Part shown: positions 5,058 to 29,500 of the stretch, in pieces | Layout: every line of letters starts with the position of its first letter | Position numbering within the stretch: position 1 is the stretch's first letter | Assembly (NCBI GenBank): GCA_033664045.1 | Contig: GCA_033664045.1_3674.1 | Reading direction: 5' to 3' (one strand) | Length of the DNA: 64,000 nt | Source of the DNA: a phage | Notes under the pieces: model-generated | The model's database searches: none | What the model was told of the DNA's origin: nothing | Seen by the model: only the letters and a program-made list of their open reading frames with translations | Translations under genes and position numbers: made by a program

Positions 5058-7655
5058 ATGCGTATTCAACACAACATTGATAACGTATTTCAGATGATTG
5101 AGGGGCACAGGAAGTGCCTCGATAACAACACAGGTATTACCAATACCCCTACACAAAATAAGCTAGTAAACCCTGATGGTCTTATAGCTGCAGGGTGGGC
5201 AGGTAATAAGATAAATAATGATTGGGCAATGCATGAGTCCCAAGCTGTGTTGATTCTGGGATACATTGAAGCATACAGGGCATCGAAAAGCGATTTCTAT
5301 CTGGATAGGGCAAAAGATGCTTGGGAAGCTTACAATAGTCATCTTCTGGGTGCATATGCAGTAGAAAGTAAAATGCAAAGATTGTCCCACTACCCACTAT
5401 CCACAGATGGGGTTCCATCACATGGTGGGTTTAAAGATGTAGTGGTGTCTTTTACCAACGGTAGAGGAAAAATCCCAGCTGGATCTCCGACATGGGGTGA
5501 ATACCTAGACAAGGCATTCCAAGCGTATAACGGTGTGCTAGGAAGAAACACTGTAGACTCTGATGTTTACGGCGGCACAGATGCTAACCCAAATTGGACA
5601 ACATCTGGATTAAGTTGGTGGGTTGAGTGGTATATAGCATGGGATGGTAACCGCTATTGGGCCAACGGTAGCATAGCAGACAGTGGTCATACGTCGGCAG
5701 AGTTCGGCACAATCCAACTGCAGGATAAGGGTGTTACAGGCAGCCATAAGGTAACCTACTGTGTGAGATTGCCACAAGAGCAGGGTGGTTCAGTGATACC
5801 TGCTGGATCCCCTGTAATTGTAAATCCTATAAATGTGGTTGCAGACAATCAAGCCCCAGAGTTGGGCGGGGAAGAAATGTGGTGTGACGCTTGTTATCAA
5901 CTCTACACCTTAACAGGTGAGGAAAAGTATTACACAGCGTTTAAGCAGTCTTACAACAAGCTGCTTAATTTCAGCGATATAAATGCCTACGACAAACTGT
6001 TTAGAAAGACCACGTTAATTAAGGCACCGTTCACAGATGGTACTTGTCTCGTCGCAGGAACAGTTCCTGTCATGAGCAGGGACAGTGACGGGTATATCAA
6101 TTTTAGAATGAACGCACGTCAGCCTTGCGAAATAATTCAAAAAGGGACTACATACAAGATAGGCAGAGATGCTGAAATTGTTATGAATTTCGGAGGAGAA
6201 GGGGTTCTGTTCCAGCCACACTTCATCCTTAATGATGGTAACAATAACAAAAAACAGTATAGGATAGGGGTCCCTTTTGGAGGGTCAGAGGTAACAGAGA
6301 CAGTTGCCAAGGTTACTGATTTCGTAGAGGTGGTTGGTAAAGACGGTAATCCGTATCTCTTGCCAAAAGAGGAAAACATTGCCGTAAGCGGTGGCGCTAG
6401 TGTTAGTATGCAGTATGATACCGACATTTATAACCACTCCGACAACTTCACCCGTTGCAACATAGCAAGAGGCAAGGTAACTTTCAATTTTGGAAGAGAG
6501 ATTTCTTTAAACTCAGTAACTTATCGCTCAGATGATGAGATGGTAAGGGCCAAATTCCTTGACAAAGACCGTTGGTTATGGTATGCTGATCTATATGCCA
6601 CTAACGGACAATGGGTAACAGAAACTCTTACCCTAGGTGATTTTAAACTAGACCCAACACAACCTCATCACACAGAAGATGAGATTAAACCTTTCTTTGC
6701 TAATCCTAAAGGAATTACCTCTGTAGATTTCAGTCTGAGCGACAGGCAGATAGGCAATGGCTTGTTCGATCTGTATTGCGTCAACACGCTGCCGCAATTT
6801 TATGTTGCAGATAGGGATGCTTATCTGATCTGGTTTAGTGTATGGATGGCAAGTAAGACAGAATCAACAGCCAAAGTTGGTGATTGCTATGTCAGAAACT
6901 ACAAGCAAGGTGCATACAGGTACACACCGGGTGTATTCCCTGCCGGAAAGGTGATAGATAAGGAAAACTATCTCTTAGAGGAAAAGCCAAATTGGCCCTA
7001 CCCTGGCATGCAATACCCAGCAGTCTACTGCATGGGTGCAGAAAACATAGATCGCCATAGGTTGTCAAATACAATAGGCTTTCTGTATGATGCTCAAGTC
7101 TGGTATAATAATACATTTAAGACAGAGGGTCCAGTTGCCTCACGTTATGTATGGCAGAGAGGTAATGAGGGGTTGACTGGTTGGTGGGAGATGGTAGATA
7201 ACTCTAAACTCCAATCAAGAGCCTTTGTTGCTGCGTGCCGCACACTGTACGAGCTTAAGAAACATAAAGAACCTGTTGACGAAAGACTGTTCCTGTTCTG
7301 CCAGAAATGGGCATGGTTCCTCAACAGATTCCAGTCATCTCATTCAGGAAATCTGCCTACAGACTTTAACACCTCTGGGGGATATTCTTATCAAGACAGA
7401 GGGGACAGGATGTGGGTGGTAGGTGAATGGCTTGCAGGTTGCTGCTGGCTAGGTCTGTGCGGGTATTCAGAGACAATACCTCAAATAGATATTGTTGTAG
7501 AAGCCTGCGTGAAGCTACTGCAAAAGCACCACTTCATCAATGGGGATAATGTTTTAAACGGCTGCTGGGCAGTTTCTGATCCGGTGGGCTATCACTCTGG
7601 CGAAATCCTTCGCGGTCTGGGCCTTTATGCTCAATACCGTGGATTGTACCTTTAA
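5058..7655 (+). CDS. large tail-associated protein (865 aa; possible receptor-binding or enzymatic spike)
   Basis: Own RBS GCAGGAG 9 nt upstream, starting 1 nt after the previous stop; Trp/Gly/Asn-rich; no anchor domain. Confidence 0.4.
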   Translation: MRIQHNIDNVFQMIEGHRKCLDNNTGITNTPTQNKLVNPDGLIAAGWAGNKINNDWAMHESQAVLILGYIEAYRASKSDFYLDRAKDAWEAYNSHLLGAYAVESKMQRLSHYPLSTDGVPSHGGFKDVVVSFTNGRGKIPAGSPTWGEYLDKAFQAYNGVLGRNTVDSDVYGGTDANPNWTTSGLSWWVEWYIAWDGNRYWANGSIADSGHTSAEFGTIQLQDKGVTGSHKVTYCVRLPQEQGGSVIPAGSPVIVNPINVVADNQAPELGGEEMWCDACYQLYTLTGEEKYYTAFKQSYNKLLNFSDINAYDKLFRKTTLIKAPFTDGTCLVAGTVPVMSRDSDGYINFRMNARQPCEIIQKGTTYKIGRDAEIVMNFGGEGVLFQPHFILNDGNNNKKQYRIGVPFGGSEVTETVAKVTDFVEVVGKDGNPYLLPKEENIAVSGGASVSMQYDTDIYNHSDNFTRCNIARGKVTFNFGREISLNSVTYRSDDEMVRAKFLDKDRWLWYADLYATNGQWVTETLTLGDFKLDPTQPHHTEDEIKPFFANPKGITSVDFSLSDRQIGNGLFDLYCVNTLPQFYVADRDAYLIWFSVWMASKTESTAKVGDCYVRNYKQGAYRYTPGVFPAGKVIDKENYLLEEKPNWPYPGMQYPAVYCMGAENIDRHRLSNTIGFLYDAQVWYNNTFKTEGPVASRYVWQRGNEGLTGWWEMVDNSKLQSRAFVAACRTLYELKKHKEPVDERLFLFCQKWAWFLNRFQSSHSGNLPTDFNTSGGYSYQDRGDRMWVVGEWLAGCCWLGLCGYSETIPQIDIVVEACVKLLQKHHFINGDNVLNGCWAVSDPVGYHSGEILRGLGLYAQYRGLYL

Positions 7656-11530: not shown

Positions 11531-11559
11531 TTGCGTATTAACTCAAAATCTGGTAAAAT
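11531..11559 (+). promoter_or_regulatory. promoter TTGCGT-N17-TAAAAT with extended -10 TG
   Basis: Hexamers at 11531-11536 and 11554-11559; same TGnTAAAATA motif as at 17065. Confidence 0.45.
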
Positions 11560-11590
11560 AACTATCATGATTGTTTAACCAGGAGGCACA

Positions 11591-17041: not shown

Positions 17042-17070
17042 TTGACTATTGTTACAAAATTTGGTAAAAT
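17042..17070 (+). promoter_or_regulatory. promoter TTGACT-N17-TAAAAT with extended -10 TG
   Basis: Hexamers at 17042-17047 and 17065-17070; 33 nt upstream of the GTG start. Confidence 0.55.
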
Positions 17071-17103
17071 ACCTTGTAGAGATTTTCATACCGGAGGAGT
17101 GAC

Positions 17104-18594
17104 GTGGCTAAGTATGGATTGACAGAGGCTGGTTTCGTTATACCAACCCTAAATGACCTAATCGTTGAAACTAAGCAAAGCCTGATCCGTGCTTTTGGCG
17201 AAAACTTCAACGTACAGAGTAACTCCGTTGCAGATAAGCTGACCACTATCTTCAACGAGCGAGAGTATCAACTTATTCTTATGGCAGCATCTGTATACGC
17301 ATCACAGACGCTGTATGGGGCAGAGGGTATTTACCTGGATGAGCTTCTTGGAAGACAGGGTATTTACCGAAGAGGCCGTTCTAAATCATCAGGTACCTGC
17401 CAGTTGACAATCAACACAACTGTGCCGTACAATATGATTTATGATTCCAAAACTTATACGCTGGACAGTGGCAACTTTGTTCTTAGCAACGATGTGCAAG
17501 TAGCAGGGAATCTTATTGCTCACAGAATAAATGCTCCAGACCTAAGGATTGGTAAATACAACTTTCAAATTACCAACCAGACAGATGGGAGTATCAAAAC
17601 AAAAAGTCTGGTTTTAACAGATAAGTCTCTGGACTCTTCTGATTTGCCAAGCTTTTACGGAGAGATTAAGCAATTCATTGTCGATAATACAACCCTGTTG
17701 AACGACGATTTGATTCAGATTGATATGTTGACAGGAACGTTGTGGATAGGGTACAATTCGAATCTTGATCAAGTTGGACTTAACAGTAGGGTAGATTTCA
17801 GAGTATCTCCGATTGTAGGGGAAAGAACTATCACACTGGATGTTATCGCTAACGAGGCTGGTGAGCTGTCAAGAGAGGCAGAAACCGTGACAACAATGTC
17901 ACCTACTCCCAGTGGATTTATCAAGCTTACCAACCGAGAAAGATTCAATGAGGGCAGGGATGTTGAGAAAGACTCAGAGTATCGCTTAAGAGCTTCCAGC
18001 ACAAAACAGTTAACATCTAAGGCTACTCGTCCTGCAATCCTTAGTGCTGTAAGCGAGGTGAAAGGTGTTGAGAAAGTGAGAGTGTTCTCCAACAACACCG
18101 ATAAAACTGATGCTAAAGGTATACCTCCTTACAAGTTCCAAGTGGTTGTGTTTGGTGGTGCAACGGAGGACATTTGCCAAGCACTTTACCAAACTATAGC
18201 CTGTACGAACAGGACTTATGGTAATATTTTCTACGATGTCACTACATCTGACGGTCAAACTGAAAGAATTTATTACTCCAAGGCAAATACCTACCGCCTA
18301 GATGTAAGAATTACCTATTCCGGAGCTGCTCTTTCCACAACCGAAAAAGATGCCATTGTAGAGGCTCTTTTGCAGGTTGTTAACGGACTGGATGTTGCAG
18401 ATACGTTGTACAATATCCAATTGGTCGGTGCTGCATCTGCTGCTGTGTCGATAGGCAGATTTAATAGACTGGTAATTCAAGTTAAACCCGTAGGAGCTTC
18501 TGATGAAGCTTATACTACAAACGATATTGTTGCGAACATGACCGAGGTGTTTGACCTCGACGAAAGTAATATAACTTTCCAACAAACTATTTAA
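17104..18594 (+). CDS. baseplate J-like protein
   Basis: GTG start with GGAGGAG RBS; N-terminal pattern resembles the Baseplate_J (P2 gpJ / T4 gp6) family from memory. Confidence 0.5.
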   Translation: MAKYGLTEAGFVIPTLNDLIVETKQSLIRAFGENFNVQSNSVADKLTTIFNEREYQLILMAASVYASQTLYGAEGIYLDELLGRQGIYRRGRSKSSGTCQLTINTTVPYNMIYDSKTYTLDSGNFVLSNDVQVAGNLIAHRINAPDLRIGKYNFQITNQTDGSIKTKSLVLTDKSLDSSDLPSFYGEIKQFIVDNTTLLNDDLIQIDMLTGTLWIGYNSNLDQVGLNSRVDFRVSPIVGERTITLDVIANEAGELSREAETVTTMSPTPSGFIKLTNRERFNEGRDVEKDSEYRLRASSTKQLTSKATRPAILSAVSEVKGVEKVRVFSNNTDKTDAKGIPPYKFQVVVFGGATEDICQALYQTIACTNRTYGNIFYDVTTSDGQTERIYYSKANTYRLDVRITYSGAALSTTEKDAIVEALLQVVNGLDVADTLYNIQLVGAASAAVSIGRFNRLVIQVKPVGASDEAYTTNDIVANMTEVFDLDESNITFQQTI

Positions 18595-18605
18595 GGCGGC
18601 GAGAT

Positions 18606-19292
18606 ATGGCAGAGATTAAGTCGGATGTTAACCACATCCACACTCTGCCAGATTTTGTTCAGGGAGGTCTTGACTACCTGCCTGGAGATTTTCTGGCTGA
18701 GAAGGTTAATTTAGTCACATTCTTAACCGTATACCTTAAAAGGTTGGAGGATGTTGATAAGATGCTGGTAGGTTTGGCTGAAGGAAGATTGCTTAACAAT
18801 GCCAGCGGAAGATACCTTGACGAAGTTGGTAATCAACTTGGTATTCTTAGGAATGGACTTTCAGATGCTGATTTTCGTGCCACACTAATTATTCAGCAGG
18901 CCGCAGCATCAAGGGGCGGGACTCGCGAAGATGTCATCTCCACCTTGCGACAATTGTTCGGAAGAGACAATTTCGATACGTGGAAAGGAGACAACTTCAG
19001 GTTTGACATAAATATTAGAAAAACTTGCTTTGACATATTGCAGTCTATCGATCAGATCTTAGATATGCTGCCATTGCCTTGTCATTTGCGTCTTACAGAA
19101 TCGCAAGGGCAAGCTTTTGGTTTTGAAGGGGACTCTACAGCTCTTGGCTTCGGATCAGTGTGGGAAGAAAACCAATTCGGAGTTGGTGGGCTGGCTACTT
19201 TGCTATATGTTCCTGACGTAAGACCTGATTGGGACACCACAACCATTTATTGTGAAAGTATTACAGTAAACGCAACTAGACAGGAGGGTTAA
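18606..19292 (+). CDS. baseplate wedge protein (P2 gpI / DUF2313-like)
   Basis: Directly follows the J-like gene; pattern LP...A.GRYLDE.G...G..R...SDADFR. Confidence 0.4.
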   Translation: MAEIKSDVNHIHTLPDFVQGGLDYLPGDFLAEKVNLVTFLTVYLKRLEDVDKMLVGLAEGRLLNNASGRYLDEVGNQLGILRNGLSDADFRATLIIQQAAASRGGTREDVISTLRQLFGRDNFDTWKGDNFRFDINIRKTCFDILQSIDQILDMLPLPCHLRLTESQGQAFGFEGDSTALGFGSVWEENQFGVGGLATLLYVPDVRPDWDTTTIYCESITVNATRQEG

Positions 19293-21364
19293 TGGCAACA
19301 GCTGTTTTTAAACCTTACCGTGATTACTCTACAATGGCTGCACAGTTTCATTACCGAACAGTTCAGGATACTGCCGTTCCTGGTAGGGATTATAATCATG
19401 TTGAGGGCGATGTAACTATCCCAATTGGGGCAACCAGTATTGAAATCCCAGTGGAAATTGTTGACAAATTACCCAACAGGTTACCAAGAAGCTTCTTTAT
19501 GGAGTTTTCATCAAAATCTCAAGGGGTGATGATTGGGACACAAAGGGCAAAATGCACAATAGTTTCAGATGAGAATCTTGACAGGATATCTTGGGATACT
19601 GTTGAGGAGAGAATGTTTCACCCAAGATATTGGGTTACAACCACCCAGCAGACTGAAAGTACCTGTATTGTTGCAGATGACAACTGTTGTATTAACCGTT
19701 TAGTGTCAAGAACATATGGAGGTATGGCTGGGTGCATTTGGGAAACAGTTGACAAGTATGACCATTTCGGTATTGGGTTTGATGATCACTATGAGATGAG
19801 AAACACCAAGCTTTGGTTCAGAATGTCAATAACCAATGCCAGCAACTTCTCCACTCCTGAAAAGATGATTATGACTGTAGACCTTGTTGATGGCACAATC
19901 ATCTATGTTCCTTTAGCTCAATATGCTGTCAGCATCTCAGAGGATAAGAATGTTGCAGAGATTCATATTGATTTCGAGGACTGCGTCGGGATGGATCAGA
20001 ACAACAACATGATGGGTGTTGATCCTCGACAGGTGAGAAGGATTTTAATACCGCTTATGCCTAAAGATTGGGTAAGTAATAGCACAGACCCGAGAACGGA
20101 AAATGTAGAGTGCGAGTTGCGCTTAGACCTGCTTCAGCCAGACACAGGTTGGAAAATGATGCAACTTAACAATATTCAGGTTAAAGAGCACGACGTTGGG
20201 ATCTGCACCGCATATGACGATATGTGGAACGTATCTCCTTTAAGGGTGTTGAACAATATCAAGCGTCTGGGCTATACCGGAACCATAAACCATTATGTTG
20301 GTATGAGTCATTATTATGACTACACATGGTCAGGAACCCAATGGTCTATAAACAGAACAGGGGCGCTAAACGCTGCAGCTTATAAATGGCATGATGATTT
20401 TATGTACAATGCCAAACGACATAACTTCGACGTTATGCAGTCTGTAAGTTTTGAGCTTTACAGCGATGCCTGTCCGTTGGAATGGACCCAAAGAGACTGG
20501 AACGATAACTACGCTAAAACAGGGTATACACCTTGTAGCTACCTCCTGTCTCCAACCATTGAAGAGGGTATGAATTTCCTTACGGCAGTATTTAAGAATT
20601 TTGCATCAGCCGCTATGAGAAACAACCTGCCAGTGATTATGCAGATTGGTGAACCGTGGTGGTGGTTCAATACCGATACTCGTAAGCCTTGTATTTATGA
20701 TTACCCTACAAAACAGGCGTTTTATGATGAGACAGGCGAGTATGCATTAGATATTGGGACTATTGACGATCCTAAAACTGGCGGTGTTTACGACAAGTAT
20801 GTAGCATTTTGTCGTGGTAAGCTTGGCGCTCGTATTGCGGCTATTTCAAAGGCAATAAAAGCACACGCTGCATCAGCTCAGATGACAGCTTTGCTGTTTT
20901 TCCCAACCATTATGGAAACCGAGCTTACGCAAAAGCTGAACCTTGCTGACCAATATAAAAAGGAAGCAGGTGCTCTTGATTTCTTCTGCACTGAGTGCTA
21001 CGATTGGGTGATGCAGGGAGGTATTGAAAAGGCAAAAGAGTCTGTAAACATACCTATCGTTAAGTTAGGTTGGCAACCGTCTGAAATACAATACCTTGCA
21101 GGGTTCGTTCCTAGTAAAGAGCTTGCTCCGGTATATGGCTACGACCCAACCAGGAATTACCAAGAATTTTTATGGAGATGTATCTGCGGGAACATGGCAA
21201 CCATAGAGTATAGATACCCTGAGGTAAAACAGTATGTGTGGGCATACCCGCAAGTAATGTCTGACAGCATCACTGTTACCGCTAGGGATTCTACCGTGCT
21301 TCATATGGGGCAGGTTGCTCTGAAAGGGTATGTAGAAGATGTTGTCCCGCCAGACTTCTCATAA
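19292..21364 (+). CDS. tail fiber/baseplate-associated protein (690 aa)
   Basis: TAATG-coupled to the gpI-like gene; Trp-rich, no firm motif. Confidence 0.35.
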   Translation: MATAVFKPYRDYSTMAAQFHYRTVQDTAVPGRDYNHVEGDVTIPIGATSIEIPVEIVDKLPNRLPRSFFMEFSSKSQGVMIGTQRAKCTIVSDENLDRISWDTVEERMFHPRYWVTTTQQTESTCIVADDNCCINRLVSRTYGGMAGCIWETVDKYDHFGIGFDDHYEMRNTKLWFRMSITNASNFSTPEKMIMTVDLVDGTIIYVPLAQYAVSISEDKNVAEIHIDFEDCVGMDQNNNMMGVDPRQVRRILIPLMPKDWVSNSTDPRTENVECELRLDLLQPDTGWKMMQLNNIQVKEHDVGICTAYDDMWNVSPLRVLNNIKRLGYTGTINHYVGMSHYYDYTWSGTQWSINRTGALNAAAYKWHDDFMYNAKRHNFDVMQSVSFELYSDACPLEWTQRDWNDNYAKTGYTPCSYLLSPTIEEGMNFLTAVFKNFASAAMRNNLPVIMQIGEPWWWFNTDTRKPCIYDYPTKQAFYDETGEYALDIGTIDDPKTGGVYDKYVAFCRGKLGARIAAISKAIKAHAASAQMTALLFFPTIMETELTQKLNLADQYKKEAGALDFFCTECYDWVMQGGIEKAKESVNIPIVKLGWQPSEIQYLAGFVPSKELAPVYGYDPTRNYQEFLWRCICGNMATIEYRYPEVKQYVWAYPQVMSDSITVTARDSTVLHMGQVALKGYVEDVVPPDFS

Positions 21365-21376
21365 TCAGGAGATAAA

Positions 21377-22417
21377 ATGTCAAAACCTAGTTTTCCATTA
21401 GAGATTTGGGCAGAGGAGGATCAGGTTCTGCCTAACACCCACAGACAGAACAGGCTACGCCCGATTGATGATTTGTGGAGAAAAGGTTGGGATCTTGGTC
21501 AAAAGCCATCCTGTGAAGAACTTAACTATATTTTCAATATGCTCGGGACTTGGGCAAAATACATTGCTGACGAGCAGATCCCCGCTCAAGAAGGCCGCTA
21601 TCTGGTACGTGATAATAACTTGAGTGATCTTTTGAACATCCCTGTTGCCCGTAGAAACCTTGGAATTATTACTAAGGAAGAGGCAGACGCCAGGTATGTA
21701 AAAGTTACAGGTGATACAATGACAGGCCCATTGGGTTTGCAACGTATCAACTTTAAAGCTGCCGAGACAGATAAGGCTTGGATAGAGACAACTATTGGCC
21801 CAGATAAGACAACTCTCGACTTTGGGTTAAGTGATAATATTGGGGCGTTTGATGATGGTGGCACCTCTACAGTAGATGCGTTCCGTTGGAGATTTCAGCC
21901 AACTCAGCCGGACATTAACCCAGAGTTCACTTTGATGTATCTGAACGCAATCACGGCTAATCGTGCGTTGTTGAAAGTGGTGGGCAATGTTGAAGTTGTT
22001 GATAACATGCGATGTAATAACCTCACCATTAGCAGCACAGCAACATTCACCAACTGCAATGTAGCTAGTCAGTTGACGGCTGGGTCAGTATATGTCAATG
22101 GCGGTGCAAGTTGTGACAGTATGGTTGTAAGAAGCCAGCATTGTGTTGTCGGTAACAGAAATGTGGTGCGCTCTGTGAATGGAGTGACGGCTAACGGCAA
22201 CGGAGATGTAACGATCACCATCCCGCAGACAGGTGTACAGGATATCAGAATCGGCGCAAGACTTGTTGATGGTGTTTCTGAATCTCCAGTTCGCAACGGC
22301 TACGTTGTCACAGGTTGGCATTTTGGTGATAAAAAAGAGATGCGTGGTTCAACCTACTGGGCAGGGCCTTTACAGAAACTTGTAAATGGTCAATGGATCA
22401 CTGTTAATTATGCGTAG
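21377..22417 (+). CDS. tail fiber protein, paralog A
   Basis: N-terminus (KPSFPLEIWAEED) and C-terminus (LVNGQWITVNYA) are paralogous to the 23432-24475 protein. Confidence 0.55.
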   Translation: MSKPSFPLEIWAEEDQVLPNTHRQNRLRPIDDLWRKGWDLGQKPSCEELNYIFNMLGTWAKYIADEQIPAQEGRYLVRDNNLSDLLNIPVARRNLGIITKEEADARYVKVTGDTMTGPLGLQRINFKAAETDKAWIETTIGPDKTTLDFGLSDNIGAFDDGGTSTVDAFRWRFQPTQPDINPEFTLMYLNAITANRALLKVVGNVEVVDNMRCNNLTISSTATFTNCNVASQLTAGSVYVNGGASCDSMVVRSQHCVVGNRNVVRSVNGVTANGNGDVTITIPQTGVQDIRIGARLVDGVSESPVRNGYVVTGWHFGDKKEMRGSTYWAGPLQKLVNGQWITVNYA

Positions 22418-22431
22418 ATCGGAGGACTAGT

Positions 22432-23016
22432 ATGAAAATACTTCAAGAGTTTAAGCTTTACCAACCGGGATCTGGCGAATACCACGCCAACAAGGAAACC
22501 AAGGAGCTGACCCCTCAAGAGGTTGAGGATTACACTGCATACACCGGGTATTTTTTACGTAATGATGATGGCGATTGGTATGTGCAGTCACGAACATTAC
22601 GACAAGAAAATCCGGGTTGTATCTTCCTCCTTGTTGACGAGAAGGGTATTCTTAAGACATCTACAGAAGAACCTGATGCCTTGTGGCCTGCTCCGGGTCT
22701 TCGTGTGGTTATCGCCAAAAAAGAAGAGGTACCAGAAAACATTATGCTCCACCACGACGCTTTGCGTTTAGTTGGTGATGAATTTGTCACAGACAATGAA
22801 TTCTTTGTTCAACAGGCAGAGGGTGTCATAGAGACAGAACTTGCTTGGGCTACTGCTAGAATTGGTGCCTATCAAGACATGATTGACCTTGAATACGATC
22901 TTACTGATGACCAAAAACGCAACATCAGAGATTTGAAAATGTACAGGGTAAAACTTCTTGAAATAGATACATCTAAAGCCCCTGACATTTTCTTCCCGGA
23001 ACGACCTACCCTCTAA
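22432..23016 (+). CDS. tail fiber assembly chaperone (Tfa-like)
   Basis: C-terminal motif DDQKRNIRDLKMYRVKLLEIDTSKAPDIFFPERP matches the Caudovirales tail-fiber-assembly pattern; sits after a fiber gene. Confidence 0.65.
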   Translation: MKILQEFKLYQPGSGEYHANKETKELTPQEVEDYTAYTGYFLRNDDGDWYVQSRTLRQENPGCIFLLVDEKGILKTSTEEPDALWPAPGLRVVIAKKEEVPENIMLHHDALRLVGDEFVTDNEFFVQQAEGVIETELAWATARIGAYQDMIDLEYDLTDDQKRNIRDLKMYRVKLLEIDTSKAPDIFFPERPTL

Positions 23017-23027
23017 GAGGAGGTGTT

Positions 23028-23342
23028 GTGGAGTTGGATTTGGCGGCATTGTACGGTATCTGCATGGGTACCGTTGTCCCGATCTGTGTATGGGCTTTCA
23101 ACCAGTGGCACACCAAATGGAAAGGCATTTCCAAGAGGTTGGATGAACTGGAGAAAGACCTCATCTTAGTGAAAAACAGTATGGTTACAAAAGATAAACT
23201 TGATTCCGTTATCGAGACCCGGTTAAGCAAGCTAGAGGCCGATATTAACGACCTTAAGCAGGATGTCAGGACAGATGTCTCCGGTATCCGAGCTGATGTA
23301 CAAAAGATTTTGCACATGCTTGTAGAGCATAGTAAAAGGTAA
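23028..23342 (+). CDS. membrane-anchored coiled-coil protein (function unknown)
   Basis: GTG start after GAGGAGG; N-terminal hydrophobic helix LYGICMGTVVPICVWAF, then a heptad-rich region. Confidence 0.4.
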   Translation: MELDLAALYGICMGTVVPICVWAFNQWHTKWKGISKRLDELEKDLILVKNSMVTKDKLDSVIETRLSKLEADINDLKQDVRTDVSGIRADVQKILHMLVEHSKR

Positions 23343-23352
23343 ACAAAGGTCA

Positions 23353-23382
23353 GAACGGAAAGGACTCCGTTCTTGCATTTTG
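23353..23382 (+). terminator. hairpin terminator overlapping the next promoter
   Basis: gaacggAAAGGACTccgttc followed by a T-rich run. Confidence 0.5.
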
Positions 23383-23401
23383 TTCTCTAAAGTGTTAAAA
23401 T
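23373..23401 (+). promoter_or_regulatory. promoter TTGCAT-N17-TAAAAT with extended -10 TG
   Basis: Hexamers at 23373-23378 and 23396-23401, about 30 nt upstream of the 23432 ATG. Confidence 0.45.
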
Positions 23402-23431
23402 AGTCCTAAGGAATTTTCTCAGGAGAACGCG

Positions 23432-24475
23432 ATGACTAAACCAGTTATCCCTCTTGATATTTGGGCCAATCAGGATGTTGTGCTTGAAAATACGGGAGAA
23501 TTGAATAAGTCCCAACCAAAAAAAGAAGAGAGATTGAAAGGTTGGGATATGACACAAAGAGTGGCATGTGAAGTTGTTAACTTTGAACTTCACATGCTTT
23601 CTGCGTGGTTAAAGCATTTAACAGAAGATGTTGTCCCAGGATGGGATAATAGATTCTTAAGGGTCACTAATAATCTGGCAGACGTTCCAGACAAAGCTGC
23701 TGCACGTCAAGTTCTCAATGTATACTCGCCTGAAGAAATGGATGACCTTTATGTTGACAAGGCTGGAGACACAATGATCCAGACTCAAACTTTAGGTCTT
23801 CAAAGAATCGAGTTTGCATCCGCGTCAACAGACAATGCGGCGATATACACCACCATAACTCCAGACAAGACGACAATGGATTTCTGGATTATGGACAACA
23901 TCGGTGGTGCTGACGGCACAGATCTTGATGATCCTTCTCACCAAATAGACGGGTTCCGTTGGAGATTTCAACCTTCTGGTGGGCAGCCTGTGTTTTCGGC
24001 TATGAAGCTCAATGCTATAACTGCCAACCGTGCAAGACTGGCTATCCAAGGGAATCTTGAATGCAACGATGCAAAAAGTTCCTCTGCAAATGCCAATTCG
24101 GTCACGATACCAAGAGCCGCTGTTAACGGACAACAATCCTGCGGAAGCGCTCAAATAGGTGGAAGAGTAGATTGTAACGATAAAACCGCCAGAGGTCAAT
24201 ATGCAACAGTTGGTGGAAGAAACGTGGTCCGCAGGGTAAATGGTAGTAGCGCAGACAGTAGTGGTAACCTTACTATTCCTATGCCTAGTAGGGGTGTTGA
24301 AGATGTAAGGATAGCAAACCGTTTCAGAACCACCTACAGAGAATCAAGAGTATACCCTGGGCATGTAATGTGCTCCGGCAATTACGCCTATAAACACCCG
24401 TATCAGGGCGACTATTGGACTGGAGCTATTCAAAAATTTGTAAACGGTCAATGGATCACCATATCTTATGCTTAA
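23432..24475 (+). CDS. tail fiber protein, paralog B
   Basis: Termini conserved with 21377-22417 (KPVIPLDIWANQD ... FVNGQWITISYA); divergent middle. Confidence 0.55.
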   Translation: MTKPVIPLDIWANQDVVLENTGELNKSQPKKEERLKGWDMTQRVACEVVNFELHMLSAWLKHLTEDVVPGWDNRFLRVTNNLADVPDKAAARQVLNVYSPEEMDDLYVDKAGDTMIQTQTLGLQRIEFASASTDNAAIYTTITPDKTTMDFWIMDNIGGADGTDLDDPSHQIDGFRWRFQPSGGQPVFSAMKLNAITANRARLAIQGNLECNDAKSSSANANSVTIPRAAVNGQQSCGSAQIGGRVDCNDKTARGQYATVGGRNVVRRVNGSSADSSGNLTIPMPSRGVEDVRIANRFRTTYRESRVYPGHVMCSGNYAYKHPYQGDYWTGAIQKFVNGQWITISYA

Positions 24476-24484
24476 AGAGGGTAA

Positions 24485-24751
24485 ATGAAATTAACTCAGT
24501 TTTTATGGGGACTGGTTGCAGCATCTGATGACCCTACAAAAGTGTCCCAATCTAAGCTATGGTCAAACATAGGCATGGCAGTGATGACTGGGGTTTTTAT
24601 TCATATGGGGTACAATGATACGCTTCCTGAATGGTATGCGTGGATATACGCACCTTCAGTAGCCTGCCCCCAGCTTATTAGCAAATTCATCTCGCTCCGG
24701 TGGGGTTGCCAGCACCCTGACCACGTTAAAAACGAAGAGCAAAAAGCTTAA
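24485..24751 (+). CDS. small membrane protein (function unknown)
   Basis: 88 aa, RBS AGAGGG, one hydrophobic helix IGMAVMTGVFIHMGY; sits between fiber genes. Confidence 0.35.
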   Translation: MKLTQFLWGLVAASDDPTKVSQSKLWSNIGMAVMTGVFIHMGYNDTLPEWYAWIYAPSVACPQLISKFISLRWGCQHPDHVKNEEQKA

Positions 24752-24760
24752 GGAGAAATC

Positions 24761-26506
24761 ATGGCGCAAGACATGACAAGCTTCGAGCAGGCGGTAGATC
24801 AAGTAATTGTTGATTCTGAACGTTTGCACTTGATTGTCAACGGTAACGCTGTGGATGAAGTTGTCGTAGAGGATGGGACCACCATCCCTACGGTACGAAA
24901 AGCCATGCTTGACACCCTTTATTTTAAAACGCCACCAATCCCTTGGGCGTATGGTGCATCCACAACAGTTTTTAACCAGTTGTATGAGTTTAAAGGGGAT
25001 ACAGGCCCTCAGTGGTGGTACGCCCCAGCAGCATCAAAATCTAACCCGGTTAGGATGCCAGCAGATCCTTCACAATCTCCGAACTGGAGATTATATACCG
25101 ATTCTGCAGTAATGGCAAAATACTACGCAAAACTTAACAGCCCAAGATTCGAAGGTGACCCGCGAGTACCTACACCTCCAATGGACGATAAGTCCGAGTC
25201 TATAGCAAACACAGAGTTTGTTGTGGACTATGTGGATAGCATATTTAAAGCCATGGAGGGGATGAAAGTTACTGTAGGGTCTTTGGTGGTAAAAGGTCTT
25301 ACAGAACTTGCTAACACCATAGTTGGTGGCACCCTTACCTTACACGGGCCTGTTAATGGAGCGGATTCTACTGCACGCTTCAGGAACCTAATCCTTACTG
25401 CAAATACTTCTACACTGACTTTTGCGTGGAGCGATCCTAAGCATGCAGACTGGAGAAGCACAGAGCTGCAACCTCATGAAGTAGCCACCCACAGAGTTAT
25501 AGCTGACACTATAACTTCTGGGAAACCAGTGGCTAATAACAACGATGTGCATTTTGATGGTCTAGGTAATAACTTTTTTGACTACGTGTACATTCGTGGT
25601 AATGCCATGAAGGCAGCAACCGAACCGACATTGCAGGTTGATGGGACCACCAGGGTTAAGAACCTTGAGGTGACAGGTACCGTTACAGGGATAACCTACT
25701 CTGTAGATGGCACCATGATCTACCCTAGCTATATTGAAAGCACGGGAGATGCACTGATCAATGGAGATTTAGAGGTTGGCGGATCTATAGTCATTCGTGG
25801 CACAGCATCCGTCCAGAACATATCTTTAAATACTCTGCGGGTGAATGAGCGTGCCACTTTTGAAGGAGAAGGGCTTACAGCCAACAAAGGTGCAATTACC
25901 GAGCTGACAACCACTACTCTAACTGCAACAACTGCAAACTCTGAAAACTGCAACGTTACCCGAAACTTGCAGGTAAATGGAGATGTTAGTTTAAACGCAG
26001 CAGGGACGGGCACCACCTACCTTCACAACCTTGAAATATCCGGCACAGTGACTGGGTGGCTGCCAGACTTCTCTAATGTCAACTTTGTTTGTAATGGCAT
26101 TAACTCCAGCGGTAAGATAACCACCTCTCAAGAAATTGAGGCGGGTAAAACCATTACTGCCCCTACTTTCCACGCAGGAAAGGTAGATTTTGATTTAGAG
26201 GAGGTTGACGCGTCCAGTGGGACATGGACACCTAACGGGCAGGCCAGTATGTATGTTGTCCACGCTAAAGGGGATTTTACAATAGGTCAGTGGCCTGGGA
26301 CATCAGCGGAAGATAAACCTTATCCATTCACTGCAGTTATCTATGTCATTCAGGATGCTGTAGGTCACAACGTGACTTTGCACGATAAGTATGCTATCCT
26401 GTCGGCAACACCTGTTATTAACAACAAGGCTAACAGTGTTACCTTGCTGCAATTAACGTATTGTGGTGTTGGTGATATCGTAGACGTAGTAATTGCACAA
26501 CGTTAA
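24761..26506 (+). CDS. tail fiber protein (581 aa)
   Basis: RBS AAGGAGA; Gly/Thr/Asn-rich fibrous composition in the fiber cluster. Confidence 0.45.
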   Translation: MAQDMTSFEQAVDQVIVDSERLHLIVNGNAVDEVVVEDGTTIPTVRKAMLDTLYFKTPPIPWAYGASTTVFNQLYEFKGDTGPQWWYAPAASKSNPVRMPADPSQSPNWRLYTDSAVMAKYYAKLNSPRFEGDPRVPTPPMDDKSESIANTEFVVDYVDSIFKAMEGMKVTVGSLVVKGLTELANTIVGGTLTLHGPVNGADSTARFRNLILTANTSTLTFAWSDPKHADWRSTELQPHEVATHRVIADTITSGKPVANNNDVHFDGLGNNFFDYVYIRGNAMKAATEPTLQVDGTTRVKNLEVTGTVTGITYSVDGTMIYPSYIESTGDALINGDLEVGGSIVIRGTASVQNISLNTLRVNERATFEGEGLTANKGAITELTTTTLTATTANSENCNVTRNLQVNGDVSLNAAGTGTTYLHNLEISGTVTGWLPDFSNVNFVCNGINSSGKITTSQEIEAGKTITAPTFHAGKVDFDLEEVDASSGTWTPNGQASMYVVHAKGDFTIGQWPGTSAEDKPYPFTAVIYVIQDAVGHNVTLHDKYAILSATPVINNKANSVTLLQLTYCGVGDIVDVVIAQR

Positions 26507-26515
26507 TATATCTAA

Positions 26516-26541
26516 CCGCTCCTGACGGGGCGGTTTTCTTA
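26516..26541 (+). terminator. rho-independent terminator
   Basis: ccgctccTGACggggcgg followed by ttttctt. Confidence 0.6.
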
Positions 26542-26554
26542 TCTGGAGAACACA

Positions 26555-29500
26555 ATGCTTCCAATCCCTTTGCTAAAACTTGGTCGTCATTTCCTCGATA
26601 AGAGGGGTGGAATTAAGGAACTTGCTGTTCTGTCATACCCAATAGACAACAGTGATGGCACAAGCACTACAGTACCCTATGTAAATAGCTTAGCTATACT
26701 TTTTGATGATGGTCAACTTAATATCACGGGCTATAACAGGTTCGGAGAGTGCCGCACTGGGGATCTTGACACGATAAACTACCCCAACGAGGCTGCCTGG
26801 AACGTTGATCATGTGTGGAGAGCAGACCGCGCGTTTGTGATCCGAACTTTTGATAACCAGTTTTTCTACATCGGCTGCACTGCAGGGCTTATCGGGTCTG
26901 ATGCTGCAGGCGGTAATGATGTTTGTGTAAGAGAGTGGACACCTCTCCCTGAACAGATTGTTAAAGGGTTGCACCTTGACACACACCCAGAGCGCCTTGT
27001 TGAGGTGATGGGTGGTATTAACAACACTATTTGGGTTATTGCAGAGGCAGAAGGCACTGGCATACTGAATCTGTATGGATCTGGTAACAACACCTACGGA
27101 TCTTTGCATGTAGATAAAAACCAGCATGCAACTCCTGTAAAGATTGGTGAAACATCGGAAAATCCTGAAACAGGTCCTTGGAAAAACCCAAGCATCAACT
27201 GCGAGGTGCATGACAACTCTGTTATTTTCGGCGGTCCTAGAGGTTTCTGGATTGCTGGATACGACTTTCTGAGAAACAACAGTAGAAACGACCTTGTTTG
27301 GCCTCCTGTGCAGATTACTCGTAACGATTTGAGAGGCATTCCTGCAGATGAGGAGTGGAAAGGGTTTATGTGTGGTCCTAACGGGGCAATAATTGCCACA
27401 CAGAGGATGCACAAACCCAATGACCAGCAGCTTGTTAACGTATTCTACGGGCAAGACGTCTGGGGAGATGACACATGGCGTTCCTTAAATATCACCTACA
27501 CTCATGAGGTGATAATGGCTCGTGGATACGGCACAAGTGGCATTTTCTTCAATAATGGCACTAAGCAGTATCGTGGATTCTCTCGCAACTTGTGTAATGA
27601 TATTGGTGCACAATCTGCAAACAATAGCCCTAGGGCTAATTTTATTCACTATCAGGCTCTGGCTACGGCTAAATACGTCGAGCAACGTCTGCCAGTTAGC
27701 TGGACAGAGAGTGTTTATTTCCAAGGCATCCACAGAGAAGGTTTCTTAGGGACCTTTACTGTTGTTAATGGCAAACTTTGGTGGTCAGGCATCCCAAGGG
27801 GGAGTTTTGCAGGCTCTAACAACCTGTTTGGCGGCAGACTTAATAGTCAGGGGTTCACAGAGGTTCCTGAGAATTGGTATAAAAATGTCCCGGTAGACAG
27901 TTGGGGTGTTGATGATATTTTCGACGTTAACGGTGTTAGCAGCGTTAGCAATATTTACATTGGTGACACGGTCAAGATGAAATTGAAGCCTCAGCCAGAG
28001 GGAGCTACGTTCATTATTGACAAGATTGAACTGGTAAATGCTGCAGGTACGGTTGTTACAGATGCAAATTACCAATTCTCCACCAACTGGAACCACGGCG
28101 GGGCCAACGAGGTTGTTGTTACCCAGTATAACAGAAATGTTAACAGACGTGGCCTGTACTCTGTAAAAATAACCTATCATGACAAGCATGGCACAGGCAG
28201 AACCCATACGACAAGAACTTTGAACTGGAACACCATAGTTCCTGCGTATCCGTCCAACGGCAAGTGGCATACTGTCGGTAGAAACAAACAGTTCCATGTC
28301 AACGATACTGTATACTTCGGGCTTAACGCAGCTCAACCTGTTGTAGAAGGCGATACATCGTATATGGTACGACTCCATAGAATGGATGCCGGGTCTGTAA
28401 CCTACGATGTGACTCAAGAGATCTACGATCAGAGACGTACTACGTATGACAATGTTGTGAAAACACAAGCCTTGTGGGAGTTCAACCCTAACGGCAGAGG
28501 CGGTAAAATGTTGCAGGTCAACGAGCAAAACGGAACATCGTTGACTGTCCATGAGCATCCAGATCCTTGGCCTGATCCTGGAAAACCTAACTCTGGTGCT
28601 CGTACACTGAAAATTGTCAGCCATGATGCAGGATATTTCGGAATACGCTGGGAAGCTACAGTAAGATATGCCGACGGGACAACAAACAACATAGGGATTA
28701 CACTTGGCGGCACTAGTGAAGATAACTCACTGAAAATTGCCTACACCCCTAGAGGCATCTCTATTGACAATATGGATGTTGTTCGCAACGGTTACGGCGA
28801 TGTGAATGTCAAAGTTACTCTTGGCGAACATCTTGGTGGGGAAAGGATCATCATGTATGCCTTTGATCATGACCCTCGCACCAACGGAACCTATGCAGAC
28901 CAGGCGTGGAGTTACCTGATAAGCGCACCTGAGCCAAATACTAAAGAATTCTACTACGGTATGAAGCGAGATGTGTGCAAGAAAACAGGGACACATGACT
29001 GGATTGCGATCTGTGTTAAAGATGAACGCACCGCTTGGAACGAGCCTGTTAACAGATGGTTCATAGGTATTCCCACCCGAAGTGATAAATACGTTGAAGA
29101 ATATATTGTGTGCATGGGCGGCACCAACCTTAATATGTGTTGGAACGAGGATGCAAACAACAAATACTCTGATTATGACTATATGCGGGACTATTCTTGC
29201 AATCAGTGGTTTAACCAACCTGGATATGCTGATCGACAGGCAAGAGTGAATCCTGCAATCTTCACAGATACTCAGGTTTTCTTGACAAAACAGGCTAACG
29301 AGGTTCAGACCTTCAAGAACAAATATGACCCTAACAAGTGGTTTTATAACTGTTATGGCGCATTTTTCTGGGGCCCAGGGGAACTACCTGGTGGTGGGTC
29401 TTGCTTCGAGGCTGCAACTTACGCCAGTGACAGATTCATGGGGCAGGTCAAGAAGTACAAGATAATTCCAGGGCCTGAAACTTTGGGTAATGCTGTTGAT

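Follow-up and report, generated by a model that had tools for sequence, protein, structure and literature searches.

We analysed a 64,000-nucleotide (nt) stretch of phage DNA (the window; NCBI GenBank assembly GCA_033664045.1, contig GCA_033664045.1_3674.1), and in particular the locus at 21,377–24,475, where two tail fibre genes, A and B, lie among a chaperone gene and two small open reading frames (ORFs), named ORF104 and ORF88 after their lengths in amino acids (aa). By homology, the locus is assigned to the short-tail-fibre module of an rV5-like Vequintavirus. Its genes and signals, together with the long fibre gene and terminator that follow, are:

21377–22417, plus strand: short tail fibre paralogue A (rV5 gp33), 346 aa, matching phrog_4465 over its full length.
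22432–23016, plus strand: tail fibre assembly (Tfa) chaperone of the Mu U/Caudo_TAP type (rV5 gp32), 194 aa, from Pfam, PHROG and Mu U profile matches.
23028–23342, plus strand: ORF104 (rV5 gp31), a predicted N-terminal membrane anchor and a coiled coil of ∼80 aa, from phrog_5345, hydropathy and AlphaFold2.
23352–23373, plus strand: terminator-like hairpin ending the baseplate–fibre A–Tfa–ORF104 unit, from a consensus scan and fold energy.
23380–23416, plus strand: late promoter motif of 37 nt, an exact match to the published P030 of rV5, with its core TGTTAAAATA at 23393–23402.
23432–24475, plus strand: short tail fibre paralogue B (rV5 gp30), 347 aa, the derived and faster-evolving copy, matching phrog_4465 over its full length.
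24485–24751, plus strand: ORF88 (rV5 gp29), weakly hydrophobic with a variable charged tail, from phrog_1322 and strong conservation.
24761–26506, plus strand: long or lateral fibre (rV5 gp28), 581 aa, a homologue of the phiTE long fibre (phrog_4549, E = 5e-250).
26514–26535, plus strand: terminator, corresponding to rV5 t028, found after the long fibre by a consensus scan.

Each of the five ORFs from fibre A to ORF88 has its own Shine–Dalgarno sequence. The two homologous fibre ORFs had been proposed by an earlier sequence-only reading of the window; both lie on the plus strand, and their coordinates proved exact.

The 8 kb around the fibre locus showed 96–97% DNA identity to more than 110 rV5-like Escherichia coli myophages (Vequintavirus), among them FV3, BP9, EmilHeitz and rV5 derivatives. 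An IMG/VR contig of 84,494 bp was 100% identical across fibre A. The IMG/VR scan yielded five loci only, and the large protein searches gave 13 and 6 matches, nearly all of them nameless.

Fibre A is the orthologue of rV5 gp33 and fibre B the orthologue of rV5 gp30. The genes gp33, gp32, gp31, gp30 and gp29 of rV5 (Kropinski 2013, PMC3606486), and those of the corresponding locus in the BASEL phages (Maffei 2021, PMC8594841), are the same genes in the same order as in the window, with 95–100% aa identity, the same predicted late promoter P030 and no substantive difference. The first of these papers described gp30, gp32 and gp33 and reported that the two fibres are 42.3% identical; its tables list gp32 as a tail fibre assembly protein and gp31 as a membrane protein with one transmembrane domain (TMD), and leave gp29 unannotated. 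In the BASEL phages, the locus is annotated with two copies of a ‘short tail fiber protein’ and a ‘tail fiber chaperone’ after the first copy. Maffei 2021 (PMC8594841) described the Vequintavirinae sensu stricto as having two paralogous short tail fibres and a chaperone, homologous to the phi92-like locus and ultimately to Mu S/U, and saw no considerable allelic variation in the fibre pair. The two-fibre, one-chaperone arrangement of rV5-like phages is therefore already in the literature, and meeting it again in the window is a re-discovery that by itself changes little. New here are the placing of the duplication in time, the displacement of a gene that we call X, the asymmetry in rate between A and B, and a corrected location for the similarity between the paralogues.

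Fibres A and B aligned from end to end with 43% identity (E = 5e-96), and their global alignment score lay 43 standard deviations above that of shuffled sequences. The similarity that the sequence-only reading had left to a formal alignment is thus significant, and the related C-terminal motifs that it had pointed out, LVNGQWITVNYA and FVNGQWITISYA, are present in the two fibres as described. Its picture of conserved termini and divergent middles has to be turned round. The paralogues are most alike in the middle, with 60% identity over aa 111–200, compared with 38% over aa 1–110 and 38% over aa 201–346. Sliding-window identity peaked at residues 100–200 and was lowest at 40–90 and 205–240.

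Both fibres matched phrog_4465 along the whole profile (1–342 of 342), A with residues 1–346 (E = 2.3e-171) and B with residues 1–347 (E = 1.4e-163). Residues 1–108 of fibre A matched residues 1–111 of the phiTE short tail fibre (9cuy; E = 1.8e-19), and residues 1–83 of fibre B matched the same protein (E = 1.4e-8), as did a profile of the B clade (E = 5.9e-14). At the other end, residues 286–343 of fibre A matched residues 440–501 of Mu S (5yvq_A; E = 4e-6); B aligns to A through this tip and shares the terminal VNGQWIT motif. By homology, then, A and B are predicted to be trimeric fibres that share one plan: a wedge anchor of ∼100 aa, a shaft and a C-terminal tip of the Mu S type. The part likely to bind the receptor is this tip and not the central segment, where the sequence-only reading had placed it.

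In a bootstrapped neighbour-joining tree, the A sequences formed one clade (100%) and the B sequences another (99%). The two clades were sisters (98%), and the fibres of single-copy phages fell outside them. All of the ∼117 Vequintavirus records have two fibre copies and all relatives have one. The duplication suspected from the sequence alone is therefore a true one and, because the A and B clades are sisters, we place a single event after the split from Avunavirus (Av-05) and Seunavirus. Divergent two-fibre metagenomic genomes (loci L021, L023, L024, L027 and L030 of our comparison) have the same layout, with the promoter kept. One record in this comparison, PQ002170.1 (Salmonella phage vB_Sen_SG_WM_RUS_R7; L004), is filed under Demerecviridae, and its short fibre is 99% identical to that of Seunavirus PVP-SE1.

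In the single-fibre relatives, the gene order is short fibre, Tfa, ORF104-like gene, X, ORF88-like gene and long fibre. This order was seen in Avunavirus (Av-05), Seunavirus (PVP-SE1, EC152 and R7), Henunavirus (Hena1), Klebsiella phages and Certrevirus (CR3). X encodes 128–157 aa with four transmembrane (TM) segments and matches phrog_7451 (‘unknown function’); examples lie at 6138–6922 of L016, 6186–6970 of L017 and 6439–7232 of L003. In the Avunavirus, Seunavirus, Henunavirus and Klebsiella phage loci, the start of X overlaps the stop codon of the ORF104-like gene, which suggests translational coupling. X was found in 110 records, all from Vequintavirinae other than Vequintavirus and always at the position following the ORF104-like gene. 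In Vequintavirus, that slot is occupied by fibre B. Fibre B replaced the four-TM gene that all single-copy relatives retained. A remnant of X in the rV5-type gap was looked for and rejected, as the window held no tblastn match to X and its junctions no alignable remnant. That X might itself be a degraded fibre was also dismissed, as its product has four TM segments and no relation to the fibres.

At synonymous sites, A and B differ to saturation, with a proportion of synonymous differences (pS) of 0.77–1.03 in every 40-codon window, and the longest exact word common to the two genes was 18 nt. The conserved middle therefore reflects constraint on the protein, and recent gene conversion was rejected as its source. 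Horizontal acquisition of B was rejected as well: no phage outside the two-fibre clade is closer to B than A is, and B is sister to A. In the sister clade of uncultured phages, the C-terminal third is the part in which A and B are most alike (61%, versus 38% in the window), which suggests that the copies have exchanged sequence occasionally and in particular lineages.

Between ORF104 and fibre B, a gap of 89 nt (23343–23431) contains the signals that separate the two fibres. The hairpin at 23352–23373 has a predicted energy of −17.5 kcal/mol (z = −4.5), and none of 200 shuffled sequences was as stable. It abuts a −35-like hexamer, TTGCAT, which lies 17 nt ahead of the extended −10 (late-promoter) core TGTTAAAATA. 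The promoter P030 and the terminator t028 were both predicted in rV5 (Kropinski 2013, PMC3606486). The window contains three copies of the late-promoter core TG(G/T)TAAAATA, where 0.37 would be expected. The three cores (11551–11560, 17062–17071 and 23393–23402) are all on the plus strand in gaps before late structural genes, and they indicate the units of late transcription in the tail region. The elements TTGCAT and TGnTAAAATA are kept in the divergent relatives L021, L023 and L024; in relatives of ∼65% protein identity, it is the promoter elements that are kept and not the sequence of the hairpin. With the hairpin and P030 upstream and the terminator at 26514–26535 downstream, fibre B, ORF88 and the 581-aa fibre would form a late unit of their own, and B appears to have come with its own late promoter. 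Orthologues of the 581-aa fibre carry the precomputed Pfam domains Phage_phiTE_241_N and Phage_phiTE_241_C.

To compare the constraint on these genes, the ratio of nonsynonymous to synonymous substitution rates (dN/dS) was computed across nine genomes. The values were 0.022 for A, 0.064 for Tfa, 0.033 for ORF104, 0.057 for B, 0.011 for ORF88 and 0.033 for the 581-aa fibre, and all genes of the locus are under purifying selection. In the same genomes, ORF88 had one variable residue of 88, and 20 of the 31 variable sites of B fell within aa 208–299. Across the ∼117 Vequintavirus genomes, aa identity was 98–100% for fibre A and 95–99% for fibre B. The comparison of the two fibres with the chaperone is given below.

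Variable sites in cultured Vequintavirus: A 4.3%, B 8.9%, Tfa 7.2%.
Identity to the window in L027: A 88%, B 78%, Tfa 78%.
Identity to the window in L023, L024 and L030: A 72–74%, B 45–49%, Tfa 43–46%.

At all three divergence depths, A is the slow copy, and B and Tfa change about twice as fast. Across clades, B is best conserved in its N-terminal anchor (56%, versus 37% in the C-terminal third). That P0015 might be a B allele that had diverged while the rest of its genome stayed typical was rejected, as the whole genome is more divergent (70–85% DNA identity for all genes).

The chaperone encoded at 22432–23016 matched Pfam PF02413 (Caudo_TAP) with 45.8 bits (E = 8.4e-12; the gathering cut-off is 22.1 bits) and phrog_136 with E = 2e-36. 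A profile of 12 sequences of its family matched Mu U over the full length (profile 1–173 to residues 1–174 of 5yvq_B; E = 8.3e-29). The gene starts 14 nt past fibre A. It was the only Tfa gene found in the fibre cluster and no second one follows fibre B, so that the Tfa-like chaperone noted from the sequence alone behind the first fibre only is borne out. The homology of the tips, the shared C-terminal motif and the similar rates of B and Tfa together suggest that this single chaperone may fold both tips; its rate tracks that of B and is therefore compatible with its also serving B. One Mu U-type chaperone for tips that are only 38% identical would bear on the specificity of Tfa proteins, which matters for fibre engineering in therapeutic rV5-like phages. 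In one record (OR062943.1, Escherichia phage 241Ecol014PP; L026, 3768–4034), it is the ORF88 orthologue that is labelled ‘tail fibre assembly protein similar to phi92-like gp144’, and the ORF104 orthologue is left unannotated. Pfam and PHROG searches gave no sequence support for this label, as ORF88 showed no similarity to Tfa families.

We consider it highly probable that the locus is explained by the anatomy described above together with a history of single duplication and a dual-fibre function. As the tree and the synteny show, a single tandem duplication occurred in the common ancestor of Vequintavirus and the uncultured sister clade. The new copy, B, took the place of gene X; it is preceded by a late promoter of its own and would share a unit with ORF88 and the long fibre. 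Strong purifying selection has maintained both copies ever since. Both fibres would be displayed on the baseplate and serve in irreversible adsorption to the lipopolysaccharide (LPS) core. Their diverged tips probably recognise two LPS core variants, widening the range of cores that can be used, and one chaperone would fold both tips. ORF104 and ORF88 would be older, non-structural and membrane-associated partners of the fibre cluster.

Several known systems share parts of this plan. Like the window, Mu has two alternative fibre tips in one genome. In Mu, Gin-mediated inversion swaps two tip/chaperone pairs (S/U and S′/U′), and each tip has its own chaperone. Unlike in Mu, the two fibre genes of the window are both complete and in direct orientation, each with an anchor and a Shine–Dalgarno sequence; there is one chaperone, and B is preceded by a late promoter of its own. 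Neither inversion sites nor flanking inverted repeats were found at the fibre genes, the only repeats being the residual homology of A and B. The chaperone is homologous to Mu U throughout and the tip of fibre A to Mu S (5YVQ), and for the tip of fibre B the likeness to Mu S is marginal and seen at profile level; the N-terminal anchor is of the phiTE/phi92 type and not of the Mu type.

In the cryo-EM structure of phiTE (9CUY; PMC11972413), residues 3–92 of the short fibre form a joint docking on wedge 1 and, because there is one wedge 1 per wedge protomer, the virion would carry six short fibres. In the 2026 cryo-EM structure of phi92 (PMC13450770), six gp147 proteins (fibre III) hang from the wedge protein gp145, and a role in irreversible adsorption was proposed. 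The phiTE and phi92 fibres, whose N-terminal anchor is homologous to A (E = 1.8e-19) and B (E = 1.4e-8), are thus docked on the wedge, six per virion, pointing downward, and are the proposed fibres of irreversible adsorption. They are single-copy, in contrast to the two paralogues of the window. The phiTE fibre, of 554 aa compared with 346 and 347 aa in the window, contains Ig-like domains and a long coiled coil, and flagella are its presumed receptor.

A functional analogue is gp12 of T4, a baseplate fibre that binds the LPS core in irreversible adsorption. The T4 protein uses gp57A and not a Mu U-type Tfa. T4 has one gp12 gene compared with the two fibre copies here, and the likeness rests on the HHpred similarity of gp30 and gp33 to gp12 that was reported by the rV5 authors (PMC3606486).

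Five points weigh against the dual-fibre function. Firstly, the presence of both paralogues in the virion is thinly backed: the main text of Kropinski 2013 (PMC3606486) lists gp30, gp32 and gp33 as detected in the virion, but the 19-protein mass spectrometry (MS) supplement shows no peptide or mass found for gp29–33. The supplementary table of that paper includes gp34, gp37 and gp27; in its Table S3, ‘MS evidence’ is noted for gp34 and gp41 and not for gp29–33. Secondly, the baseplate offers no evident place for a second fibre: in the solved single-copy relatives the short fibres take up six sites, one per wedge, and the wedge proteins of the window are about the same size as those of relatives. 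The two paralogues, with their homologous anchors, might occupy the six sites as a mixture, alternate between them with C3 symmetry or use a further site. Thirdly, the LPS receptor glucose was reported to be common to all E. coli core types (Maffei 2021, PMC8594841); if so, the benefit of two specificities is doubtful, and two copies would be under strong selection despite a shared receptor sugar. Fourthly, fibre B as a single sequence gave no match to the Mu S tip at E ≤ 1, and a profile of seven B-clade sequences (284–345) matched Mu S residues 436–502 marginally (E = 0.0012), in the register seen for A. Finally, service of both tips by one chaperone is suggested solely by the tip homology, the common C-terminal motif and the likeness in rate named above.

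The best surviving alternative concerns the small ORFs. The sequence-only reading had described a membrane-anchored coiled-coil ORF behind the chaperone, and ORF104 fits this description. It has a TM segment at aa 5–21 (Kyte–Doolittle 2.08), and the helix that follows shows heptad periodicity, with 71% hydrophobic residues at the a and d positions compared with 38% overall. The AlphaFold2 model has a mean predicted local distance difference test (pLDDT) score of 88.6, with two long helices (5–49 and 55–103). A topology prediction had been recommended for this ORF: as the flank of the TM segment is acidic on the N-side and basic on the C-side (in 10 of 11 homologues), an N-out/C-in protein with a cytoplasmic coiled coil is predicted. 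ORF104 matched phrog_5345 (‘unknown function’; E = 1e-48). Pfam and NCBIfam gave no match and PDB profiles generic coiled-coil matches only, and a fold search with the model returned nothing at E ≤ 0.001 (best E = 0.32). X likewise matched no family in Pfam or NCBIfam, and annotation of ORF104, ORF88 and X from PHROG went no further than ‘unknown’ or ‘membrane protein’. An i-spanin identity was rejected for ORF104: the spanins of LL12 and CB7 are annotated next to the terminase, there is no embedded or adjacent lipoprotein partner, and the Phapecoctavirus homologue that carries a ‘lipoprotein’ label has no lipobox.

For the ORF behind fibre B, which had been called a small membrane protein, the gene is there, but its membrane assignment is poorly supported. 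The best 17- to 19-residue windows of ORF88 reach Kyte–Doolittle values of just 1.05–1.27, and its AlphaFold2 model is of low confidence (pLDDT 59.7). The table of the rV5 authors (PMC3606486; TMHMM and Phobius) gives no TMD for gp29; the annotators of PVP-SE1 called one TMD in the homologue, and ORF88 matches phrog_1322, a ‘membrane protein’ family (E = 3e-32). Homologues were found in 369 phage records. The conserved core is KxWSNxG..MT.VF..G...L.EWY.W.YAP.V..P.L.S..I.LRWG; the N-flank is basic and the loop acidic, and the charged C-tail varies, reaching ∼50 residues in some relatives. There was no Pfam, NCBIfam or PDB match beyond generic coiled-coil or helical-hairpin ones (PDB profiles). 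In the uncultured sister clade (L024, 7001–7369; L030, 5067–5447), the 74-residue core is nearly invariant and is followed by a C-terminal extension of ∼35–50 residues rich in Tyr, Asp, Arg and Pro.

Homologues of both small ORFs occur across the Vequintavirinae and in Phapecoctavirus, and an ORF104-like gene directly follows Tfa in Avunavirus, Seunavirus, Henunavirus, Certrevirus and Phapecoctavirus. Both ORFs are ancestral to the locus and evolve under strong constraint, at a level that is among the highest in the cluster. Their pairing in the sequence-only reading, ORF104 with A and ORF88 with B, is a matter of position only: both are older than the duplication and are present in single-fibre relatives. 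In the Phapecoctavirus Ro121c4YLVW (L005, 5696–6243), the ORF88 homologue is not beside the long fibre; it lies between a 102-aa ORF, consisting of a tailspike N-terminal anchor domain alone (phrog_7992 and others), and a baseplate wedge gene.

These genes might be lysis proteins (holin or antiholin) or superinfection-exclusion proteins embedded in the fibre cluster, as ORF104 and ORF88 in the window and with X in the relatives; we judge this improbable. It is true that a place for a holin is vacant in these phages. The annotators of LL12 could not identify one, its endolysin (gp90) and spanins (gp65 and gp66) lying away from the fibre cluster; neither CB7 nor KPP-1 yielded a lysis cassette; and in rV5 the holin is a tentative candidate only, gp129 (PMC3606486). 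ORF104 and ORF88 are small, membrane-associated and expressed from late units, and the layout of ORF88, with its basic N-flank, acidic loop and charged C-tail, resembles that of a two-TM holin. They also seem not to be structural: by mass spectrometry, the short and long fibres of CB7 (CB7_31 and CB7_36) were among 26 virion proteins, and CB7_32 to CB7_35, at the positions syntenic to Tfa and the three membrane proteins, were not among them, although the CB7 paper states non-detection outright for CB7_32 only. That CB7_33–35 are absent from the reported set would suit lysis proteins.

However, ORF104 and ORF88 show no similarity to holin, spanin, Imm or Sp families in Pfam, PHROGs, NCBIfam or the PDB, and the hydrophobic segments of ORF88 are weak (best 1.27). 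The coiled coil of ORF104 is predicted to be cytoplasmic. In the T4 holin T and in i-spanins, the coiled coil is in the periplasm. The genes never adjoin an endolysin and keep strict synteny with the fibre genes over two subfamilies. X, the sole clearly multi-pass member of the trio, was lost completely from Vequintavirus, so that the three genes cannot be essential as a set, and superinfection exclusion fits poorly with late expression. The more specific proposal, that the ORF104-like, X and ORF88-like genes form the holin/antiholin system of the Vequintavirinae within the fibre operons, is judged equally improbable. If it were true, genes for lysis timing would be placed inside fibre operons; in T4, the holin gene t stands directly after the fibre chaperone gene 38. 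As it stands, the small ORFs are highly constrained genes in a phage group without a confirmed holin.

A slightly less likely alternative is that fibre B no longer binds a receptor and now serves the long-fibre network as a structural adaptor that, for example, braces the phiTE_241-like fibre or holds it in position. One unit, from P030 to the terminator at 26514, takes in B together with ORF88 and the long fibre, and the long fibre of phiTE is believed to touch the short one (PMC11972413). An adaptor would also suit the drift of the B tip beyond detection of Mu S from the single sequence, and the conservation of B across clades chiefly at its anchor (56%, compared with 37% in the C-terminal third). 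Nevertheless, B retains the full fibre architecture, the VNGQWIT motif and a profile-level match of its tip to Mu S, and purifying selection acts along its whole length.

The weakest alternative, and a very remote one, is the host-range cassette favoured by the sequence-only reading, in which interchangeable, fast-diversifying receptor-binding modules with variable centres would set the host range: two receptor-binding-type genes do stand side by side, the variability of B is slightly higher than that of A and is clustered at aa 208–299, and the greater likeness of the C-terminal thirds in the sister clade (61% versus 38% here) suggests occasional exchange between the copies, but both genes are 95–100% conserved in ∼117 genomes from many hosts, dN/dS is 0.02–0.06, the paralogues resemble each other most in their centres, inversion sites and flanking repeats were not found, and only the three largest lateral fibre genes, not the fibre pair locus, vary between isolates (Maffei 2021, PMC8594841). 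The fibre pair thus goes back to a genuine, old duplication and does not form a host-range cassette that can be swapped.

Upstream of fibre A, the window continues the late unit with baseplate and tail genes:

17104–21364, plus strand: upstream context, from Pfam and PHROG matches, with a late promoter core at 17062–17071.
17104–18594, plus strand: Baseplate_J wedge protein (Pfam and PHROG).
18606–19292, plus strand: baseplate protein (Pfam and PHROG).
19292–21364, plus strand: protein of 690 aa with non-contractile-tail-sheath TIM-barrel and Calx-beta domains (Pfam and PHROG).

The 690-aa protein matched the N-terminal and TIM-barrel domains of the Pfam ‘non-contractile tail sheath protein’ (E = 1e-79) as well as Calx-beta. 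Its annotation in the BASEL phages is that of a lateral tail fibre bearing glycosidase and deacetylase domains. It lies upstream of the short fibre in Av-05 and is not at that position in PVP-SE1 or CR3.

Between 16 and 21 records labelled ‘Campylobacter phage’ (host C. jejuni; GenBank MG0656xx) showed ∼96% identity to the rV5-like coliphages over 19000–27000 of the window, and their small ORFs are identical to those of the coliphages. These records look like coliphage carry-over or mislabelling and not true Campylobacter phages.

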